A stretch of 64,000 bases of DNA from Bdellovibrionales bacterium (GTDB taxonomy: Bacteria > Bdellovibrionota > Bdellovibrionia > Bdellovibrionales > UBA1609): the NCBI GenBank assembly GCA_965242515.1, contig OZ251448.1, positions 1,300,692-1,364,691 of the forward strand. The letters run 5' to 3'. How positions within the stretch are numbered: position 1 is the first letter of the stretch; each line of letters begins with the position of its first letter. The notes under the pieces were generated by a model. The model saw only the letters and a list, made by a program, of their open reading frames with translations. It was not told the DNA's origin and made no database searches. This document shows positions 9,426-49,044 of the stretch, piece by piece. The translations under genes and the position numbers were made by a program.

Positions 9426-11960
9426 TTAGTGTTTTTGTAGAGATACATTTTGTGAATAATGGGCTTTTAAGCCAGATATTTTTTCAAACCGACGCTTAAA
9501 CAGGTCTTGAGCCACTTTAATTTCCAAGGCTTTTACTAGTATTTGATCAATATGTTGCACGGTGATGATCTCTAATTTTTTTAAGATATCGGCGGGAAGG
9601 TCTTTTTCTTTATCTTTTAAATCCTTTGCATTCTCTTGTGGGATAATGATGGTTTTTATACCTTCTCTGTGAGCGGCTAAAATTTTTTCTTTTAAGCCCC
9701 CAATAGCTAGTACGCGACCCCTAAGGGTTATTTCGCCTGTCATGGCGATGGTTTTTCTTACGGGGAATCGAGTAATAGCAGACACTAAAGAAGTTGTGAT
9801 AGCCACCCCCGCAGATGGTCCATCTTTTGGGACTGCACCTTCTGGCACATGGATATGAAAATCATGTTTTTCAAAAAATTCTGGAGGTAGTCCAAATAAA
9901 GGACCACGGGAGCGTACATAGCTTAAAGCTGCGGAACAAGATTCTTTCATCACATCCCCTAACTGCCCGGTGATAATAAATTTACCTTTGCCCGGCACAG
10001 CAATGGCTTCAATAATAAGTAAGTCCCCGCCTGTTTCTGTCCAAGCCAACCCATTGGTAAGACCTATTTCACTGCGTTTTTCTGCTTTACCGTATTTAAA
10101 TTTTTGTATACCTAAGTAGTGTTTAATTTTAGGGTGGGTGATGGTGCAATCATAAGCTTTTTTGCCTTCTTCTTTTGCGGAGATGATGTCTCGCACAAGC
10201 TTCCTGCAAATTTTAGCAATTTGTCGCTCCAACTCCCTTACTCCTGCCTCTCTGGTGTAATAACGGATAATGGTTTTTAAAATATCTTTGCTAAAATTTA
10301 TGGAGTATTTTTCTAACCCATGTTTTTTAATTTGCTTACAAACTAAGTACTTATCTGCAATATCTAATTTTTCTGCCTCTGTGTAGCCTTCGATAGGGAT
10401 TTTTTCCATACGATCTAATAAAGCTCTAGGAATATTGTGTGCTGAATTAGCTGTGGTAATAAATAAAATAGAAGATAGGTCATAGTTGACTTCTAAATAA
10501 TGATCTTGAAAGGCTTCGTTTTGCTCCGGATCTAATACCTCTAATAAAGCACTGGAAGGGTCTCCTCTAAAATTGGTGCTAATTTTATCCACTTCATCTA
10601 ATAAAAATAAAGGGTTTCCGTATTTTACTTTTCTTAAAGCTTGTATGATTTTACCGGGCATAGCCCCTACATAAGTGCGTCTGTGACCTCTGATTTCCGC
10701 TTCATCTTGCACCCCTCCCATGGAAATACTAGCAAATGGTCGCCCTAATGCTCTGGCAATAGAACGAGCCAAAGAAGTTTTACCCACCCCCGGGGGACCT
10801 ACAAAACATAAAATAGGGCTTTTAGGTTGGTCCGTCATGGTTCGAACAGCTAAGTACTCTAAAATTCTTTCCTTCACTTGCTTTAAACCCCAATGATCTT
10901 TGTTCAGTACATCTTGAGCTTTTTTAATATGGCACTTTTCTTTAATATAATGAGCCCAAGGTAAGTCAATCATCCAGTCTATGTAGTTTCTAATAATGCC
11001 TGTTTCTGCACTCATAGGGGACATGATTTTTAGTTTTTTTATCTCTCTGGTAGCTTTTTCTTGAGCTTCTTTAGACCATTTTTTTTTGCGAGCTTTTTCT
11101 TCTAATTCTTTTACTTCTTTTTGAAAATCATCTTTTTCTCCTAGCTCTTTTTGGATAGCTTGCAATTGTTCATTTAAATAATACTCCTTGTGTGTACGCT
11201 CCATTTGTTCTTTAACATTGCTACGCAACTTTTTTTCTACTTTTAAAACCTCTATTTCTCGTGTGATATGCTTTAATATCATTCTTAATCTATCTACGGC
11301 GTTAAAGCTTTCTAAAATAGCTTGTTGATCTTCCAGTTTTAGTGTCATTTGAGAGGCAATGTTGTCCGCTAATTCGTTAAAATTATCTATGGTAGCCACC
11401 CGGGCTAATACTTCTGGTGGGATTTGTCTGTTTAGTTTCACATAAGTTTCAAAGGTAGAACATACCATACGGGCTAAAGCTTTAGCCTCTGTGGGTTTTT
11501 TAGTGTTTTCTACAATAGGTAATACCTGTATTTTAAAATAAGGCTCAAGCCCCAGGTATTTTTTAATATGCACTCGCCCTTTTCCCTCTACTAAGGCTTT
11601 TACTGTACCATCCGGTAGCCTCAAATGTTGAATGATAGTGCATAAAGTACCAACTGTATGAATGTCATCTGGTCCGGGGTTAGAGCGTCTGGCATCTTTT
11701 TGAGCAGCTAATATAATATCTCTTTGGTCGTCCATAGCGGCTTGTAAAGCTTGAATGCTTTTGTCACGCCCTACAAAAAGGGGCATCATCATTTGTGGAA
11801 AAATTACTAAATCTCTTAAAGATAACAAAGGTAAAGTAAGATAAGATTTTTCATCTGCTGGTGTTTCATCTGCTGGTGTTTTATCTGCTGGTGTTTTATT
11901 TGCTGGTGTTTTGTCTGCTGGCACAGCTTGTGGTTTTCGTTTTGTTTGTTTTTTAGGCAC
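9426..11960 (-). CDS. lon: ATP-dependent Lon protease
   Basis: 844 aa. Lon N-domain, Walker [10 protein letters not shown] and protease domain with [12 protein letters not shown]-terminal repeat extension [23 protein letters not shown]. Confidence 0.95.
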
Positions 11961-41373: not shown

Positions 41374-43997
41374 TTTGACACCCCCGTTTTATTAAGTGAT
41401 TTTATTTGTTCTTTAAAAAAAATATTCTCTTTTTTTAATGCTTTATTTTCTTTTTCTAAAGCCTCAAGTCTTTTACCTATATCTAAAATAGTAATTTTTA
41501 GCTTATGTATTTTATCTAATACTTCTTTTTTAAAGTCCATAAACCTGTTATAAAGTGCTTTTATCCCAGCCCATAGTGTGCCGTATATTGAAACCCAATC
41601 GGGCTGTATAGGCTTACCATTATCTTGTATTTGCAAGTGTTTAGGTAAGTCTTCTGAAATAATACCCATTCGTTTATGCTTTGGGTGGTCTTTGTTGTAG
41701 TAATAAGTAAAAAGTGGGGTGTTATTTATTACACTTAATGCATATTGATAATTTTTAAATAAGGTAATGTTGTTTTTAAACACTCTACTTGATGCAGGGG
41801 CTACCGCTTGCTGACAAGTAGTTCCTGTATTTCCACAATTTAAATAAATCTTATTTTTTACATACAGGTTGCCGTTTATAGCAAAGTGTCCTTCTTCACT
41901 TGCTGTTAAGCTATCTGCTTTATAGTTTGTAGCAAAAAAATCAGCACCCGTTGGCGGAGTCCCAGTTGGTGTTGTACCAAAAAGTAAATTACCTATATTC
42001 ATCTGGTGACTTCCTGTTTCAGTTATTCCGCCCGCTGTGGTTTTTGAGGCTTCGTGACCGATAAATATATTATTATTTGCAGGTGTAGTTTTATCAGTAC
42101 CAGAGTTTAAAACATTCCCTGCTTCTTTACCTATTATTACATTATTACTCCCTCTGTTACTTTGACCTGCCAGAGGTCCTATTATTACATTAAACCCACT
42201 TGCAGTGTTATCACGCCCCGCCGTATCGCCAATAAAAATATTCCTATTACCTGAAGTGGTTTCTTTACCTGCACTTACCCCTATAAAAACATTTTTCGCA
42301 CCTGTGGTGTTTTTTTCACCTGCTACATTTCCAATAAAAATGTTTTGTATCCCTTGTTGCCCAGTCCCACCTTCTGTTTTGTTACCTGCTTTGTTACCGA
42401 TAAAAGTATTACCTCTACCATTTGTAAGGTTAACCCCCGCTTCATTTCCAATAGCTATATTGTTACGACCTGTTACTGGTTTTGATGTTGCGTCATTAGT
42501 CCACCTCCCTTTACCTGCCTGATAGCCGATAAATAAGTTTTTTGCACCTGTGGTGTTTCCGAATCCTGCTTCTCGCCCAATAAACACATTATCCCCAGCT
42601 GTGGTCTTATTTCCCGCATTGTGTCCTACAAAAGTATTATTTGACGCTGATACATTATCCGCTCCAGCTCCAGCACCAATAAATACATGATTCCCACCTG
42701 TGTTTTTATTTCCTGCATAAGCTCCTATAAAAGTATTCCCATTTGTGGTTGTGTTTGCCATTCCTGTTTGTACTCCAATAAAGGTGTTTTCAGACCCACT
42801 ATTAGCACGACCTGCACTTGGTCCTACAAAGGTGTTGCTTTGCCCTCCTTCGCTATTTTGTCCTGCTAGTTCGCCAATAAATACATGATTCCTTCCTGAA
42901 GTATTGTTTTCCCCAGCATAAGCCCCTATGAAAGTATTTCTAGAGGCTTCTATTTCGTGAGTTCTTGTGGTTGCAGTGTCATCTTTTAAGTTTTCTTTTC
43001 CAGCTTGATAACCGATAAAAACATTCTCGAACCCTGTAGTGGTTTTCCTGCCTGCATTGTTGCCGACAAAAGTATTGCGAATGCTTGTGGTGTCCCTGCC
43101 TGCATTGCGACCGATAAAAGTATTTTTTCCTCCAGCCCCAGAATTACCTGCATTTAATCCGTAAGCAGTAGTAGAAACATCTGTGTTACCTTTTGTAGTA
43201 CCACAGCCGACATAAATAGCCTTGTCTGGACCTGACTGATATTCTGTGTAACAATCAACACTGCCCCCCGTACCGCCAGAGGCTTGTATAATACCCCCAC
43301 AAGTGGGACTTTCGCATGTTTCAACTGCTGTACCCCCAGCATTTAACTTATATTTAAAATCGCAATACTCATAATAGCAGTTATTTATATTCGCACTTGT
43401 GGCATCACAATCTTTACCAGCTATACCTTTACCTAAACCCTCTTTTTTGTAATAAACCACAAAGCGTCTGGTAACAGGGTCACTAATGGGGCTTGTAGTG
43501 CTAACAGTAGGGCTTGCCGTACTACTATCACCTGGTACTTTTTTTAATTCCATTTTTACAATGTGTAAAGAGCTTTTAAATACCTCCCCAGATTCTAAAA
43601 CCTTATAATTTTCTGTGTATGGTTGGGTAGTCCCTGTATAAGTACTAAGTTTTTTAACTTCGCCTGTGTACTTATTTGCACTATTTGCTCCCTCTAACCG
43701 ACCTATTAAAGGTTTAAAACTACCTTTACAATGTTGTTCGGTTCTTAAAATATCTAATATAGAGGCATGTAAGTCTTGTATTCCAATCCCCGCCATAGCT
43801 TTGCTTGTAATTCTACTGCTTAAGTCGTTCAGCTGTAATAGCCCCAAAAGTACGAATGGTAACGCCCCCATAGTCGCAATTAAACCTATTAGCGACACAC
43901 CTCGGGCATTGCGAAAATAATAAAAAATGGATTTTTCTCGTTTTTCCATGCCCTTACTTGAGGCTGTGCTGAAAAAGTGTTTTTTTAATCTAAGCAT
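41370..43997 (-). CDS. tail-fibre-like surface protein: pilin-like N-terminus, NxFIGxxAG repeat shaft, C-terminal peptidase-S74-type intramolecular chaperone domain
   Basis: ARG|VSLIGLIATMGALPFVLL. About 20 units of N[TVI]F[IV]GxxAGxxNTxG. C-terminal SSRVFKNNITLF...RMGIISEDLPKHL...DWVSIYGTLWAGIKAL followed by a coiled coil. An alternative start M17 lies at 43949. Confidence 0.7.
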   Translation of the reverse strand: MLRLKKHFFSTASSKGMEKREKSIFYYFRNARGVSLIGLIATMGALPFVLLGLLQLNDLSSRITSKAMAGIGIQDLHASILDILRTEQHCKGSFKPLIGRLEGANSANKYTGEVKKLSTYTGTTQPYTENYKVLESGEVFKSSLHIVKMELKKVPGDSSTASPTVSTTSPISDPVTRRFVVYYKKEGLGKGIAGKDCDATSANINNCYYEYCDFKYKLNAGGTAVETCESPTCGGIIQASGGTGGSVDCYTEYQSGPDKAIYVGCGTTKGNTDVSTTAYGLNAGNSGAGGKNTFIGRNAGRDTTSIRNTFVGNNAGRKTTTGFENVFIGYQAGKENLKDDTATTRTHEIEASRNTFIGAYAGENNTSGRNHVFIGELAGQNSEGGQSNTFVGPSAGRANSGSENTFIGVQTGMANTTTNGNTFIGAYAGNKNTGGNHVFIGAGAGADNVSASNNTFVGHNAGNKTTAGDNVFIGREAGFGNTTGAKNLFIGYQAGKGRWTNDATSKPVTGRNNIAIGNEAGVNLTNGRGNTFIGNKAGNKTEGGTGQQGIQNIFIGNVAGEKNTTGAKNVFIGVSAGKETTSGNRNIFIGDTAGRDNTASGFNVIIGPLAGQSNRGSNNVIIGKEAGNVLNSGTDKTTPANNNIFIGHEASKTTAGGITETGSHQMNIGNLLFGTTPTGTPPTGADFFATNYKADSLTASEEGHFAINGNLYVKNKIYLNCGNTGTTCQQAVAPASSRVFKNNITLFKNYQYALSVINNTPLFTYYYNKDHPKHKRMGIISEDLPKHLQIQDNGKPIQPDWVSIYGTLWAGIKALYNRFMDFKKEVLDKIHKLKITILDIGKRLEALEKENKALKKENIFFKEQIKSLNKTGVSK

Positions 43998-44091
43998 AAA
44001 GTAGCCTCACTTTTATGTTAAGAGTTAAAAGAAGATATTTTAAAGGAGGCAAGGGTGATTTTTTAATCAATGCTTTATTATTCAGGCAGGT

Positions 44092-44196
44092 GAAAAAACC
44101 ATGCTCAAAACGAGTTCGGATTTGACACAAAGTGGTAAGCTGACAGCTTACGCTTTGTGGCAAAACGCAGTCCAAAGCTTTTGAGCTCGGTTTTCC
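44092..44196. repeat. hairpin element family H
   Basis: GAAAAAACCATGCTCAAAACGAGTTCGGATTTGA...GCTTTTGAGCTCGGTTTTCC. Together with its 3' flank it is duplicated at 45753-45916. Confidence 0.8.
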
Positions 44197-44237
44197 TCTC
44201 TGCAAAAAAAGACTTTTTAAACAGTAAGCATGCGTGG

Positions 44238-44257
44238 ATTCCCGCCTTCGTGGGAAT
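44238..44257. repeat. ATTCC-N10-GGAAT palindrome (family P)
   Basis: attcccgccttcgtgggaat followed by gacaactgacg. Confidence 0.75.
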
Positions 44258-44385
44258 GACAACTGACGAAGAAATAACGAGCGATGAAATAAATAAAAAA
44301 GATAACTAATGTAATTCTTTAGTGCTACTCTGGAATAGTAAAATACTGTTCTGGAATAGTGAGAAAACCAATTCAAAACGAGTTC

Positions 44386-44407
44386 GCACCCAAAGGGTGC
44401 TTTTTTT
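44386..44407 (+). terminator. intrinsic-terminator-like hairpin inside repeat family T
   Basis: GCACCC-AAA-GGGTGC followed by TTTTTTT. There is no ORF upstream. Duplicated at 45557-45578. Confidence 0.45.
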
Positions 44408-44475
44408 GATACACTCCTTGCACACTCAATATTATTCCCGTCAATACCACTTAATAAACTATTGCTTTGGTATAA

Positions 44476-44582
44476 GGGGAAAAACCAAGTCAAAACGAGT
44501 TCGGATTTAACGCAAAGTAGTAGCCTTTGGCTAACACTTTGCGGTAAACCGCATGTTTGAGCTTTTGACTTGGTTTTTCCCC
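44476..44582. repeat. hairpin element family H (diverged copy with near-perfect termini)
   Basis: GGGGAAAAACCAAGTCAAAA...TTTTGACTTGGTTTTTCCCC. Confidence 0.8.
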
Positions 44583-44625
44583 TATACGCACAAAGTAGTA
44601 ACAGGCTAATAATCCTCTCTGCGAA

Positions 44626-44693
44626 AGAATGTCTGAAACAATAAAGAGCGTTAGCTCTTTTACTCCCCCCGTGCAAACGGGGGGCTGGGGGGG
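44626..44693. repeat. structured module family G (two hairpins, one with GCAA loop)
   Basis: agaatgtctgaaacaat-AAAGAGC-gtta-GCTCTTT-tact-CCCCCCGT-gcaa-ACGGGGGG-ctggggggg. The second copy at 47142-47208 sits right after a gene stop. Confidence 0.8.
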
Positions 44694-44711
44694 TGATTAA
44701 ATTAATTAATA

Positions 44712-44952
44712 GATGGTAACGATGTAACGATGTAACGATGTAACGATGTAACGATGTAACGATGTAACGATGTAACGATGTAACGATGTAACGATGTAAC
44801 GATGTAACGATGTAACGATGTAACGATGTAACGATGTAACGATGTAACGATGTAACGATGTAACGATGTAACGATGTAACGATGTAACGATGTAACGATG
44901 TAACGATGTAACGATGTAACGATGTAACGATGTAACGATGTAACGATGTAAC
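44712..44952. repeat. 8-bp microsatellite (GATGTAAC)29, perfect, plus one imperfect leading unit
   Basis: Counted directly: 44721-44952 is 232 bp, which is 29 uninterrupted copies. It is preceded by gatggtaac. Confidence 0.95.
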
Positions 44953-45348
44953 CAGTATAGCACATTAGCTTCATACTGTCAAGCCCTTGTGGTAAAAATA
45001 ATCTGTTTAAAAGTAAGTTTAAAATCCTCATATTTGCCGTATCGGCTGATTGGAAAAATACTTTAGCTTTTTTTTATTTTTTTTAAATTTTTGCTATTTT
45101 TTCTAAAAAATCACCATTAGTGTCTCATTTTGAGACACTTTGGCGGACTCTAGCCTGCTATATAAGTCTGGTAAACCATTCAAAAGTTTGGTTTTGTGAT
45201 GTTTTATTTACAGTTTAGCCAACCATTTACTAGAAGGAAGGATTGTGTGTCGGTGCAGGCAAGGGCCCCACGGACGGCTGTCCTGCACAAGACATACAAT
45301 CCTTCCTTAAATTTTGCTTGTCATTTTTTGTCAAAAGGGGCTTTCTGG

Positions 45349-45368
45349 ATTCCCGCCTCCGCGGGAAT
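45349..45368. repeat. ATTCC-N10-GGAAT palindrome (family P)
   Basis: attcccgcctccgcgggaat followed by reiterated ggaatgacNN..gacg sub-repeats up to about 45440. Confidence 0.75.
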
Positions 45369-45556
45369 GACGGCTGACGATGGAATGACAATAGAGACAG
45401 GAATGACGACAGTTGACGCAGGAATGATGGTTGAGGAAGAAATGATGAGCGATGGAAAAAATAAAACAGATAACTACTAATGTAATTCTTTAGTGCTACT
45501 CTGGAATAGTGAAATACTGTTCTTGAATAGTGAGAAAACCAATTCAAAACGAGTTC

Positions 45557-45578
45557 GCACCCAAAGGGTGCTTTTTTT
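45557..45578 (+). terminator. intrinsic-terminator-like hairpin inside repeat family T (second copy)
   Basis: GCACCC-AAA-GGGTGC followed by TTTTTTT. Confidence 0.45.
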
Positions 45579-45635
45579 GACACACTCCTTGCACCCACAA
45601 CTTAATAGCTGTCAATGACACAAAGTACATGCTGG

Positions 45636-45655
45636 ATTCCTGTTTCCGCAGGAAT
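45636..45655. repeat. ATTCC-N10-GGAAT palindrome (family P)
   Basis: attcctgtttccgcaggaat followed by gatggttgacg. Confidence 0.7.
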
Positions 45656-45752
45656 GATGGTTGACGAAGGAGTGACGATTGACGAAGGAATAATTTTTGA
45701 TAGAAAAATAAAAATGAACACATATAATGATATATATGCTTCATTGCAGAGA

Positions 45753-45855
45753 GGGAAACCATGCTCAAAACGAGTTCGGATTTGATACAATGCGGAAGTC
45801 GAAGACTTACGCTTTGTGGCAAAACGCAGTCCAAAGCTTTTGAGCTCGGTTTTCC
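45753..45855. repeat. hairpin element family H
   Basis: GGGAAACCATGCTCAAAACGAGTTCGGATTTGATACAA...GCTTTTGAGCTCGGTTTTCC. Confidence 0.8.
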
Positions 45856-45896
45856 TCTCTGCGAAAACAGACTTTTTAAACAGTAAGCATGCGTGG

Positions 45897-45916
45897 ATTC
45901 CCGCCTTCGCGGGAAT
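45897..45916. repeat. ATTCC-N10-GGAAT palindrome (family P) used as the IS insertion site
   Basis: attcccgccttcgcgggaat. The IS left end starts at the next base. Confidence 0.8.
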
Positions 45917-47098
45917 TGTATGTGTTCACTAATTTGGTGACAGAATCAAGTTTTATTATCTTTCATTTTTTTTGTTTTTACATCTTGTGCTTTTATACAC
46001 ATTTTGTTCACCTCCAACGGCACTTTGTTACCTAAACCCTGGTGTGGTCTTAACTCATTATAATATATCAAATACTCCTCCAACTCAGACTTAAACTTCT
46101 CTATTGTATCAAAAGTCGTACCATCTATTAAATCCTCATTCATTGTCCTCCAAAACCTCTCAATCTTACCATTTGTCTGTGGCCTGTAAGGTCTCGTATA
46201 TCTATGCCTTACCCCTAACTCCAATAACATCCTCTCAAAAGGATGCTCCAACTTATTGTTACGAGAACTAAACTCCGAACCATTATCACTCATCACCTCC
46301 TCAAACTGTATCTCATACCTTCTCTTTAATACATTAAATAACCTTAAGGTAGAAAACATCACTGTTAAACTCCTAATATCCTCTACCACCTCAGCCCAGG
46401 CTATACGCGTACAATCATCTATCACACACACTAAATAATACCTCTTGCTTTTTTTCTTACTACTACCTCTTTCAGAAGAAGAAGATACAACTATATCCCT
46501 GCCCAAATGATGGCAATCTATATGAGCTAACTCCCCAGCCCTTTGTTTTATGATCTTTTGCTTGTTTTCCTTCATCTTTGGCTTTAACCTATTAACCCCA
46601 TTCTTCTTAAAAATACGATACACCTTACTTGCTGATAATGGCTTATAACCTCTTTTTTTTAAAAGAGGGTTAAGTATATAACACATCTCATACCTATTCA
46701 CACCATATCTGCGATGCTTTAACACCTCTTGCTCTATATAAACACTCTCATCACTCCTCCTATGCTTCCACTTAGGACCTCTCCTTTGTGGCACTAAACT
46801 ACTAATATCTTTATTACTACTCAAATAACGATGATAATACTTAAAAAAAGTCTGACGATTAGTATTATGATACTTATAAAAATCACTCGCAAACCTAAAC
46901 TTAGGATGCTTCTTGCTCTTTACTAACTCATAATCCTTCATCAAATACCTCCACTTACTAATGTAACTCCTATAAATCGTCTTGTCTTGTGTATTATTTC
47001 TCATAACTTATCCCTCCCTTTTTATTTGTTTATGTTTTATACATATTGTTATGCTTAAACTAACATAAATTCTGTCACCAAATTAGTGAACATTTACA
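45917..47098 (-). mobile_element. intact IS481-like insertion sequence (1182 bp)
   Basis: 30-bp terminal inverted repeats TGTATGTGTTCACTAATTTGGTGACAGAAT and TGTAAATGTTCACTAATTTGGTGACAGAAT (28/30). 5-bp direct duplication GGAAT at 45912-45916 and 47099-47103. A single transposase ORF fills the element. Confidence 0.85.
45946..47004 (-). CDS. DDE transposase (HTH + rve integrase core; IS481-family-like)
   Basis: AHIDCHHLG (D), VMSDNGSEF (D) and YRPQTNGKIERFWRT (E). A 352-aa single ORF. Confidence 0.85.
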   Translation of the reverse strand: MRNNTQDKTIYRSYISKWRYLMKDYELVKSKKHPKFRFASDFYKYHNTNRQTFFKYYHRYLSSNKDISSLVPQRRGPKWKHRRSDESVYIEQEVLKHRRYGVNRYEMCYILNPLLKKRGYKPLSASKVYRIFKKNGVNRLKPKMKENKQKIIKQRAGELAHIDCHHLGRDIVVSSSSERGSSKKKSKRYYLVCVIDDCTRIAWAEVVEDIRSLTVMFSTLRLFNVLKRRYEIQFEEVMSDNGSEFSSRNNKLEHPFERMLLELGVRHRYTRPYRPQTNGKIERFWRTMNEDLIDGTTFDTIEKFKSELEEYLIYYNELRPHQGLGNKVPLEVNKMCIKAQDVKTKKMKDNKT

Positions 47099-47141: not shown

Positions 47142-47208
47142 AGAATGTCTTAAACAATAAAGAGCTTTAGCTCTTTTGCTCCCCCCGTGCAAACGGGGGG
47201 CTGGGGGG
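47142..47208 (-). terminator. family G double hairpin acting as a probable terminator of 47221-49044
   Basis: It begins 12 nt after the stop codon. The minus strand reads CCCCCCGT-TTGC-ACGGGGGG, then AAAGAGC-loop-GCTCTTT, then ATTGTTT. Confidence 0.45.
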
Positions 47209-47220
47209 TATATTAACAGA

Positions 47221-49044
47221 TTAACAACTGCCACTTAAAAAACATTGTGCTAATTGTTGAATATTCTGATTTCTATGAATGTTTAACCTCCGTCTCACAA
47301 TTGCTTGCCTTAAGACACGAAGTGGAGGATTTCTTATCTGATATAAAGCTTGCAAAGCTGATAATAAAATTTCTGCATCGGTGCTGGTTTGCACCACCCG
47401 CACTAATTGCTGACCCACCTCTGGCTCTTGTGCTTGTAAAAAATGTAAAGTTTTAATAGCTTGTAATTGCACCCACTGACCATTATCAGTATGACTTTGA
47501 CTATTATAAACATAATGAGCAATTAAACGATTAATGGAAGAATCTTTTACTCGCGAATACGCTAACCCATATAAAGCGTACCACACCAGCCCGTAATGCT
47601 CTGGTGTATTCTTTAAAAAATAAACCATTCTATTAATAATAGCAGAATCGCTAACATTGAGATGCCCAAGGCTTTTCATTACCTGATAACACACTACAGG
47701 GTCTTGAGACACTTTAGATATACAAATGTTCATAAGCCTACGATGAGCACGATAATCTGTTATATTAAATATCTCTAAAATGAGAGCACTCCATATATTT
47801 TGATAAAACCGAGTTTGAAAATCATCTGAAGTTAAACCCAAACCCGGAAGTGGCACATGCTCATTATACATTAAAGCACTTAAAAAGTCATACGACTCAG
47901 AAGTAGACTGCATGACTGTATGTAGCGTGTGCTTGCGTAATTCAGACCAGTAAAAATTGTTCGTTACCCAATCAAAAGAATGTAAAAAATTTAAAAACTG
48001 AATTTTTATATAAGGTAAAAAAGGGCTAATCCTATTATACAACCCAGTGAACTCTGACTTAAATGTGTTATTATTTTTAATATCGTTAAAAATACCAAGG
48101 GCTGTACCTTTAAAAGGGCGATGCTCTAATACAAAACTTTTAATAGCTGTATAGGCTTTTGCACCATCACCTGCATGTAATAAACTCTCTATAGTACGCA
48201 AACCATCCGTATCAGATAAAGAAGATACATAAAGCGGACATATTTTTTGAAATTTTTTAAAATTAGGATGACTAGAAGATAAACTTTTTATCTCTTTAGC
48301 AGAACCACCTAAAGCATAACGATAAAATGGATTAAATGCATTGGGATCTCTTTGATCTAAATAATTTTTGTAACTTCCATATTGCTGGTTGATAGATTGA
48401 AAGTAACTATGTAACAAAGAGTGTATATTCTCACCTAAGGGGCTTAAAGAGTTAAAACCATAAATAGTGGTTTGCGGACCAGAAAACACCATCTGCATTT
48501 GCTCTTCAAAAGATAAACCAAAAGGTAAGTATTTAGCAGCTGATACCATTTGTGCCATGTCGGTAATCATGTGATATTCGTTTATTAAAATGCTGGCATA
48601 CTGTTCTGGAGTACGAGTGCCTGGACTTTTATCAGCTAAAGTATTGCAACCAAATAAAAATACTTCTTTTACCCGCGATAAAATCCCTTGGCAAGATCGA
48701 GTGCAAGATTGCCGTTGCATCATACTCACCGGTAAAATGTAATTATGTTTTTTGCCAAAAAACAACCCTCCAAAATGCCCTGAAATGACTAACACATCAC
48801 ACTGATACTGCCTCTGACAAGCTGACATAAACCAATGCGTGTTGTTAGGAAGACTTTTTACAGATAAAGGCACTAATTCTATAAAATCAAAATCTTGTGG
48901 ACTTAAGTACTGTTTAAAAATATCAATCTCGTCTGAAGAATTAATGGTGACAGCACATAATTTATACTTAGCCATAACCATACATGGCCAATACATCAGC
49001 AATAAAAAACATACCCATAACTTGATACGAACTAAACTAAACAT
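47221..49044 (-). CDS. hypothetical secreted protein with caspase-like His/Cys dyad pattern in the N-terminal domain
   Basis: Signal-like N-terminus. Strand-plus-residue patterns CDVLVISGH(90)FGG and EVFLFGC(133)NTLA lie 43 aa apart. The C-terminal about 350 aa are helical-repeat-like. Confidence 0.5.
   Translation of the reverse strand: MFSLVRIKLWVCFLLLMYWPCMVMAKYKLCAVTINSSDEIDIFKQYLSPQDFDFIELVPLSVKSLPNNTHWFMSACQRQYQCDVLVISGHFGGLFFGKKHNYILPVSMMQRQSCTRSCQGILSRVKEVFLFGCNTLADKSPGTRTPEQYASILINEYHMITDMAQMVSAAKYLPFGLSFEEQMQMVFSGPQTTIYGFNSLSPLGENIHSLLHSYFQSINQQYGSYKNYLDQRDPNAFNPFYRYALGGSAKEIKSLSSSHPNFKKFQKICPLYVSSLSDTDGLRTIESLLHAGDGAKAYTAIKSFVLEHRPFKGTALGIFNDIKNNNTFKSEFTGLYNRISPFLPYIKIQFLNFLHSFDWVTNNFYWSELRKHTLHTVMQSTSESYDFLSALMYNEHVPLPGLGLTSDDFQTRFYQNIWSALILEIFNITDYRAHRRLMNICISKVSQDPVVCYQVMKSLGHLNVSDSAIINRMVYFLKNTPEHYGLVWYALYGLAYSRVKDSSINRLIAHYVYNSQSHTDNGQWVQLQAIKTLHFLQAQEPEVGQQLVRVVQTSTDAEILLSALQALYQIRNPPLRVLRQAIVRRRLNIHRNQNIQQLAQCFLSGSC

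Follow-up and report, generated by a model that had tools for sequence, protein, structure and literature searches.

The window analysed here, a stretch of 64,000 nucleotides (positions 1300692-1364691 of a single-contig Bdellovibrionales genome of 1.76 Mb with 34.7% G+C), contains a perfect array of 29 octamer copies upstream of an operon for a pilin-like fibre protein. We propose that this array is the variable element of a slipped-strand reading-frame switch of the pilin/fibre operon, which would act via a separate leader frame; judged from the sequence, we give this reading a probability of about 0.6. The broader claim, that a contingency-type repeat is tied to the pilin/fibre family, we hold to be highly probable. 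The proposal is carried by a module that is conserved in 13 paralogous loci, by a long leader frame that is open at each of them up to the start of the next gene, and by simple repeats that lie in frame in the prepilin leaders of related species.

Octamer arrays at pilin and fibre loci

Tandem Repeats Finder reports at 44716..44952 a period of 8 with 29.6 copies, 100% matches, no indels and a score of 474, and exact regular-expression matching on the plus strand returns 29 whole GATGTAAC units, 232 bp in all (Table 1). Both results bear out the original prediction for this stretch, which had described a perfect 29-copy octamer, and the distance from the array to the fibre start codon at 43997 is indeed the 715 bp that had been estimated. 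Such a length is far beyond chance. On the fibre strand, which is the minus strand, the array is free of stop codons in all three sense frames and translates as (VTSLHRYI)n. A scan of the whole window with Rfam gave no known RNA family.

Perfect GATGTAAC arrays occur at ten loci of the genome, with 4, 6, 7, 10, 19, 22, 29, 35, 76 and 86 copies, and the one-letter variant GCTGTAAC forms perfect arrays at three more, with 7, 8 and 9 copies. This gives a total of 13 arrays of G(A/C)TGTAAC with 4-86 copies, all of them within one conserved module. That the arrays are each perfect yet differ in length, and once in unit, is, as far as sequences can tell, the signature of ongoing local slippage. Loss of mismatch repair was rejected as the cause of the repeat richness, MutS and MutL both being intact. 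There is also an orphan module (genome 1378010-1378330) with one GCTGTAAC unit and no pilin gene downstream; its GC hairpin and extra run show compensatory C-to-T and G-to-A changes and its frame is closed after 229 nt.

For the analysis of associated genes, each locus was oriented by its array and the neighbouring open reading frames (ORFs) were clustered. Twelve of the 13 arrays are followed, at a distance of 0.55-1.2 kb, by a gene in the same orientation that encodes a prepilin-type protein with the N-terminal motif KG↓FSL(I/L)E; behind the thirteenth (genome 48806) stands the gene of another kind of secreted protein. Arrays accompany all six fibre genes of the genome, whose products have 855-898 aa and which each have a Cys-rich partner downstream, and six of the eight cassettes made up of orf103, a short pilin (197-223 aa) and a 118-aa basic protein. 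Pfam confirmed the N_methyl motif PF07963 in a short pilin and in the paralogous fibre of the 76-copy locus, and prepilin peptidase genes are encoded in the genome. The idea of a contingency locus linked to the fibre gene, put forward tentatively in the original prediction, is strongly supported by these associations, as well as by the homologous fibre genes of six sister species described below, which carry other simple repeats at their 5' ends.

The two array-less cassettes of orf103 and short pilin are found at genome 847677-848000 and 517651-518300. In the former (847k) nothing separates the conserved upstream region from the ribosome-binding site and ATG of orf103; in the latter (517k) a repeat-built frame of 217 codons, which starts right after a XerC/D-like recombinase gene, is open up to orf103.

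The fibre protein of the window has a weak match to the Peptidase_S74 chaperone and its gene has its own GAGG ribosome-binding site. Its prepilin motif is degenerate, ARG↓VSLIGLIATMG as compared with KG↓FSLIE, and, in contrast to its five paralogues, it has no match to PF07963. On sequence grounds, the assignment to the pilin family holds for the paralogues, of which the window fibre is a degenerate member, and with both a degenerate motif and a frame that is predicted to be OFF this copy may be decaying. The controlled genes probably encode a surface-exposed structure, since the paralogues have the prepilin N_methyl motif and the window fibre has shaft repeats and the weak S74 match.

Module anatomy and frame logic

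The elements of the module are listed in Table 1 in the order in which they are met on the fibre strand.

Table 1. Elements of the octamer module and genes of the fibre operon in the window.
Element	Position	Strand	Remark
Palindrome GTGTCTCATTTTGAGACAC (GTGTCTCA-N4-TGAGACAC)	45120..45138		Upstream module edge; in all paralogues
Candidate leader start codons, ATGs at 45031, 44974 and 44965	44963..45031	-	One shared frame
Sigma-70-like site TTGACA-17-TATACT with TG	44954..44982	-	11/12 matches; 1 nt from array
Octamer array (GTTACATC)29, (GATGTAAC)29 on plus strand	44721..44952	-	Exact matching
Degenerate junction unit, 9-mer GTTACCATC (GATGGTAAC on plus strand)	44712..44720	-	In most paralogous modules
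Stop trap TATTAATTAATTTAATCA (stretch TATTAATTAATTTAA)	44694..44711	-	TAA in two frames, third open
GC hairpin C7-AG-CCCCCCG/loop/CGGGGGG	44665..44693	-	11-21 nt after OFF-frame stop codons
Second hairpin AAAGAGC-TAAC-GCTCTTT, then ATTGTTTC	44633..44660	-	Flagged terminator-like
Open leader frame, 324 codons stop to stop, without ATG	43990..44964	-	Ends with TAG 5-7 nt past fibre ATG
Fibre gene, 875 aa	41370..43997	-	Pilin-like N-terminus (degenerate), NxFIGxxAG shaft repeats
Cys-rich secreted protein, 498 aa	39877-41373	-	Same operon; such a partner after all six fibre genes
Membrane protein, 168 aa	39308-39814	-	Downstream partner, same operon

The ATGs upstream of the array share one frame, and this frame is the same at 13 of 13 loci. 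In the window AAGGG is found 9 nt before the ATG at 44974, and with 29 copies the ATG frame corresponds to ORF 44702..45031 (-) of 109 aa, which crosses the array and stops just past it. At the short-pilin loci a GGAGA ribosome-binding site precedes the far ATG, which in alignment corresponds to the orf103 start codon of the array-less 847k locus, with its ribosome-binding site. The sigma-70-like site, the best in a region of 2.1 kb, overlaps the candidate start codons; 12 of 14 modules retain its hexamers at the 17-nt distance, with a spacer of varying sequence. The palindrome at the upstream edge may be a terminator or an operator.

Directly behind the array stands the stop trap, which exists in two paralogue sequence variants. 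Both keep a stop in two frames and leave the third open, and in both the two non-open frames stop 3-23 nt past the array. The two hairpins that follow, kept together with the stop trap in two sequence variants across the modules, have a predicted energy of -25 kcal/mol (z = -2.8); in the predicted fold of 44620-44740 (-) the array units are unpaired and the hairpins pair within themselves. The U-tract in the tail ATTGTTTC of the second hairpin is interrupted. An identical two-hairpin module, consisting of the GC hairpin, AAAGAGC..GCTCTTT and ATTGTTT, at 47152-47216 (-) in the window is probably an ordinary terminator, because it is located where a terminator belongs, 20 nt past the stop codon of a gene for a 607-aa HEAT-like protein (47221..49044). 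Runs of G6 and G7 had suggested a G-quadruplex/small-RNA recombination device as at Neisseria pilE; this candidate was dropped, there being only two or three G-tracts, which moreover belong to the template strand for transcription in the fibre direction.

From the end of the array to the start of the next gene, exactly one sense frame is open over 548-1166 nt at all 13 loci. Together these frames contain 0 stops in 3548 codons; for the other five frames the count is 157-274 each. Relative to the first base of the downstream start codon, they end anywhere from 6 nt upstream to about 28 nt downstream, with overlaps of stop and start such as ATGCTTAG, ATGCATAA, ATGTCTGA and TAATG. In the window the frame runs from the array through both hairpins and a gene-free mosaic with several palindromic and REP-like mobile repeats, and when translated, the leaders of all loci are chains of the palindromic and REP-like mobile repeats of this genome. 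Hence the statements of the original prediction on coding potential have to be revised. The three ORFs it took for mere repeat do exist, and one of these frames is more than the repeat: from stop to stop it has 324 codons, reaching from 44964 to 43990, 8 nt past the fibre ATG. Its conclusion that the region has no credible ORF, and that an effect would not be on a reading frame, is contradicted by an array in frame with conserved ATGs, by the two-frame stop with a third frame open to the start codon at 13 of 13 loci, and by repeats that in relatives lie plainly inside the prepilin leader coding sequence.

We now examine the frames as functions of copy number n. Only if n is a multiple of 3 does the ATG frame lead into the open leader frame, which is true at two of the 13 loci, namely the fibre loci with n = 6 (genome 963390) and n = 9 (genome 622226), predicted to be ON. 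A remainder of one is found for n = 4, 7, 7, 10, 19, 22 and 76 and a remainder of two for n = 8, 29, 35 and 86; all of these are predicted to be OFF. One of the n = 7 loci (genome 983152) may be ON as well, since the matching frame there contains an alternative ATG at -11. When the window was rebuilt in silico with n = 27, 30 or 33, the leader became 341-357 aa long with its stop at +5 nt from the fibre ATG; any other n from 26 to 33 placed the stop about 707-711 nt upstream of that ATG. Thus a change in copy number toggles in silico the frame of the leader and not that of the structural gene itself. The window locus is predicted to be OFF with its 29 copies, one unit short of ON.

The mechanism that we propose would work as follows. 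Translation would start at the conserved ATG, 13-91 nt before the array, and run through the array as (VTSLHRYI)n. If n is not a multiple of 3, the ribosome would hit the TAA in TATTAATTAATTTAA right after the array, and the two hairpins that follow after 11-21 nt, one GC-rich and one terminator-like, would be free to fold. The untranslated leader of 0.55-1.2 kb would then be terminated, either intrinsically or by Rho, for which the genome encodes a gene, or would be left uncoupled, and the fibre operon would be OFF. If n is a multiple of 3, the ribosome would find itself in the open frame and pass through the hairpins and the leader of mobile repeats; leader translation would end on the start codon of the first structural gene, so that transcription would be kept going and translation coupled, which is the ON state. 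At the window locus 29 copies would be OFF and 27, 30 or 33 copies ON, provided that copy number changes at a useful rate and that the downstream genes depend on translation of the leader.

In our reading the leader must stay translatable and its sequence would be irrelevant, and only frame-compatible mobile repeats would therefore have accumulated in it. The gene-free mosaics of 0.7-1.3 kb upstream of these operons are then probably translated leaders, and the large distance between array and fibre gene would be explained by such a leader, full of mobile repeats, lying in between. Wherever palindromes of the type ATTCCC-N8-GGGAAT, with 18-nt sub-repeats, occur in the leaders (e.g. window 43990-44640), they translate as ...SFLRQ(L/P)SFPRRRES... 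without exception. A palindromic element of about 110 bp has one 3' arm that is read in two frames, as KSELVLNWF or as IRTRFEHGF.

Repeats in related species and in known switches

The N-terminal 260 aa of a paralogous fibre were used as query for homologues, and 12 of 14 congeners gave matches. A perfect simple repeat is found 0-400 nt before the matched region at 12 of the 26 fetched loci, which belong to six species: (CAAC)27 and (CAAC)38 in G007, poly-C of 16-22 in G006 and G004, (ATGA)15 also in G004, (ATGT)14 in G008, (TGAA)10 and (TCACCAA)29 in G011 and (CACCCAA)29 in G003. In 11 of these 12 the repeat and the prepilin motif G↓FSLIE share an open frame. A clear example is G007, where ATG AAA CAT TCT is followed by (CAAC)n and then by RAG↓FSLIE, giving MKHS(QPTN)n; of its two paralogues one is in frame with its own ATG and the other is out of frame. 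G003, G004 and G011 have in-frame mobile repeats between the simple repeat and the cleavage site, with a leader of up to about 250 codons. Across the genus the repeat unit thus appears to turn over (1, 4, 7 and 8 nt) with its site in the translated, later-cleaved prepilin leader being kept. We consider this kept position the strongest argument for a functional association that would act via the reading frame. At the orf103 loci of relatives there are only 12-mers inside a transposase gene or weak AT-rich arrays and no conserved design.

Repeat-based phase variation is textbook knowledge for host-adapted pathogens such as Neisseria, Haemophilus, Campylobacter and Mycoplasma. By analogy, the Neisseria opa family would be closest to the present system in logic and the HMW adhesins of Haemophilus influenzae closest in layout. 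The opa genes, of which there are about 11 dispersed copies, have a (CTCTT)n coding repeat in the leader-peptide region (PMC3745409). Both are multigene families of surface adhesins in which each copy has its own perfect repeat with a unit that is not a multiple of three. The opa repeat lies in a translated N-terminal leader that is later removed, as in the sister species here; the reading frame depends on copy number, and no more than a subset of loci is in frame at any one time. Unlike in opa, the repeat of the window family lies in a separate leader frame of 550-1170 nt, built largely of mobile repeats and stopping on the start codon of the structural gene; it is followed by a stop trap and terminator-like hairpins, its unit is of 8 nt with up to 86 copies, and the organism is a Bdellovibrio-like bacterium rather than a host-restricted pathogen.

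The H. influenzae genes hmw1A and hmw2A have a repeat (ATCTTTC)n in the 5' untranslated region that is transcribed and sets the expression level (PMC12721329), and biogroup aegyptius has an octanucleotide (GCATCATC)12-15 upstream of hmwA (PMC3309571). Likeness is found in a repeat with a unit of 7-8 nt upstream of a large fibre-like adhesin gene and in a G/C-rich hairpin-forming stretch nearby; the HMW repeat is transcribed as part of the leader. Unlike the HMW control, which is graded and involves an RNA hairpin cut by RNase III, the array RNA is here predicted to be unpaired, and ATG, stop trap and open frame would make a three-phase switch. In Mycoplasma gallisepticum each vlhA (pMGA) gene has a (GAA)n tract upstream and only the copy with a tract of the right length is expressed. 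There, too, many paralogous surface-protein genes each have their own variable repeat before them; unlike the octamer array, the GAA tract affects transcription from a position upstream of the promoter, has a unit divisible by three and involves no leader frame.

The proposed downstream steps have counterparts in leader-peptide attenuation, as in the trp and his type of leaders, and in termination-reinitiation coupling at overlapping stop and start codons in operons. Shared features would be a translated leader, a ribosome that stops short of or passes through a terminator hairpin, and a stop that overlaps the next start. Different from attenuation, the proposed input is a heritable and reversible frameshift in a DNA repeat rather than the amino-acid supply, and the leader has hundreds of codons. 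As for the controlled genes, the chimeric MAT fibre proteins of Bdellovibrio bacteriovorus mediate prey recognition (PMC10769870). They resemble the present fibres in being a paralogous family of phage-tail-fibre-like adhesins in a Bdellovibrio relative; unlike them, the present fibres have a pilin-type N-terminus. Our literature search found no description of repeat-based phase variation for Bdellovibrio-like bacteria, their fibre adhesins (including MAT) or prepilin leaders, nor of a mechanism with a repeat-gated long leader of mobile repeats.

If the proposal is true, a population would display a shifting subset of six fibres and six or more pilins, and the diversification of attachment specificity in small-genome predators or epibionts would become directly testable. 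It would also add a new mechanism, in which a repeat gates a translated 'junk' leader that is linked both to a terminator and to reinitiation, and provide a selective reason for the build-up of in-frame-compatible mobile repeats in this genome. For annotation it would mean that a gene being called present or intact says nothing on its expression at these loci.

Alternatives and other repeat families of the genome

Several observations weigh against a reading-frame switch. The promoter-like site, which is 1 nt away from the array, overlaps the ATGs, and these would be missing from the transcript if this site were the main promoter. The fibre genes have their own ribosome-binding site and an ATG in a different frame, and expression independent of the leader is possible. 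Classical switches have much shorter arrays than the 76 and 86 units found here. The array or module was not found in other genomes or strains: the triple-unit octamer pattern was not found in 40 relatives, 14 congeners contain no real homologue of the module DNA, the matches of the junction pattern in two public collections of genome and metagenome contigs are all due to chance and lack arrays, and an exact look-up of the window fibre protein returned no other assembly. Furthermore, mobile repeats are partly stop-free by nature, and 15 of 29 repeat-dense control regions (240-674 nt, taken elsewhere in the genome) are at least 95% open in some frame, so the raw open-frame statistic overstates the case. 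Six of these 15 open controls are themselves leaders, five of the decamer family described below and one of the array-less 517k pilin locus. Unlike the controls, the leader frames at 13 of 13 loci are longer (2-4x), lie in the right strand and phase and end at a start codon. Indel lengths modulo 3 in global pairwise alignments of the 13 leaders amount to 529/512/492, a count from alignments that the mosaic repeats make unreliable.

Three other explanations were weighed. In one of them the array is part of a transcribed and untranslated 5' leader that acts as a 'volume control' of the HMW type: TTGACA-17-TATACT would be the operon promoter, transcription would start in the first unit, and the length of (GUUACAUC)n would tune mRNA stability, processing or read-through of the hairpins, the reading frame being irrelevant. 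We consider this unlikely. In its favour, the promoter-like site (11/12 with TG) is the best in 2.1 kb and is conserved in 12 of 14 modules, the range of 4-86 copies suits a graded device more than a three-state one, and precedents exist in the (ATCTTTC)n of the hmw1A 5' untranslated region (PMC12721329) and the octanucleotide upstream of hmwA in biogroup aegyptius (PMC3309571). It leaves unexplained, however, the two-frame stop trap with a single open frame at 13 of 13 loci, the conserved in-frame ATGs and the clearly coding repeats of six sister species. No pairing is predicted for the array RNA, which lacks a G-rich partner like that of the HMW hairpin. In G007, moreover, the start codon of an obvious prepilin ORF lies within TTGACA-17-CATTCT, which corresponds to the promoter-like motif, and therefore the motif cannot be the sole promoter there. 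A stand-alone small RNA made of promoter, repeat and terminator was rejected as an explanation; it is possible as a by-product of the promoter-like site and leaves the frame architecture unexplained.

Alternatively, array and leader could be relics that hitch-hike, derived from an ancestral in-frame switch of a prepilin leader: the structural genes would have gained their own starts and perhaps promoters, and the arrays would drift without effect on expression. Fibre and orf103 genes do have ribosome-binding sites and ATGs of their own in another frame, two short-pilin cassettes do without an array, the prepilin motif of the window fibre is degenerate and the leader is a dumping ground for mobile repeats. 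But an unselected frame of 550-1170 nt with 35-44% G+C should close fast, as it did in the orphan module and in the neighbouring mosaic to the right of the array (45200-45920), which is 57% open with no frame kept open; instead the frame is open at 13 of 13 loci, each time with its end at the start codon that follows, and stop trap and terminator-like hairpins are conserved in two sequence variants. This makes a relic in our opinion rather improbable, somewhat more so than a volume control. Very improbable is an array of protein-binding sites, in which the units, with their core ATGTAAC, would be bound by a Schlafen/AlbA_2-HATPase-HTH protein and cause silencing, titration or a roadblock just past the promoter. 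The heptamer ATGTAAC is common to the arrays and to motifs flanking the gene of this protein, which adjoins one array. Against this, only one of the 13 arrays is near a Schlafen-like gene, three arrays and the orphan module have CTGTAAC instead, the heptamer is not enriched outside the arrays (259 versus a median of 230 for heptamers of the same composition), the paired sites are 11-12 bp apart and not 8, and no part of the frame architecture is explained. The reading-frame switch is thus the explanation that we prefer.

Among the many other perfect arrays returned by a genome-wide run of Tandem Repeats Finder is a second family with a design like that of the octamer loci. Perfect arrays of the decamer (AAGTCTTATC)6-13 are present at at least nine loci (genome 19632, 23532, 26523, 68518, 339645, 346238, 979962, 1683283 and 1705657), with variants at 11049, 653478 and 1511076. 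Here TTGTAA-16-TATAAT is followed by an ATG 7 nt past the -10 box (leaderless-like), the array, a two-frame stop and an open, repeat-built leader of 400-720 nt, after which GGAGGaagttATGA (GGAGG..ATGA) starts small secreted proteins. This family, too, is in frame only where n = 6 or n = 9.

For its size the genome seems unusually rich in candidate contingency loci. One may speculate, and we do so with less than even confidence, that this predator-like genome of 1.76 Mb has a large 'phasome' of 13 octamer, at least nine decamer and several tetramer switches. In the octamer and decamer loci a repeat would gate a long, functionless leader filled with mobile repeats, in which passage of the ribosome would override the terminator behind a stop trap and overlapping stop and start codons would provide the hand-over. 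The result would be a stochastic switching of the fibre-adhesin repertoire, possibly as bet-hedging for prey or host range.

Perfect tetramer arrays are found at genome 1578769 (ATTC x16.5), 1691138 (ATGT x12), 1708467 (ATCT x33.5) and 649490 (ATAG x15.8), and perfect 7-mer arrays at 567808 and 630300; in two of these tetramer and heptamer cases the array lies right at the 5' end of an ORF (about 290-360 codons) whose product resembles a secreted protein. The Schlafen/AlbA_2-like gene (genome 745500-747300) lies 1 kb from the 19-copy array and is flanked by near-identical blocks with paired CCATGTAAC-N3-4-GCATGTAACTGGA, the core heptamer of which is that of the octamer; one more CCATGTAAC/GCATGTAACTGGA pair is found at genome 594773. 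In the window, 1 kb to the right of the array and beyond the mosaic of 45200-45920, an ORF of 352 aa at 45946-47004 (-) encodes a transposase with an integrase core (rve), which we read as IS481-like.

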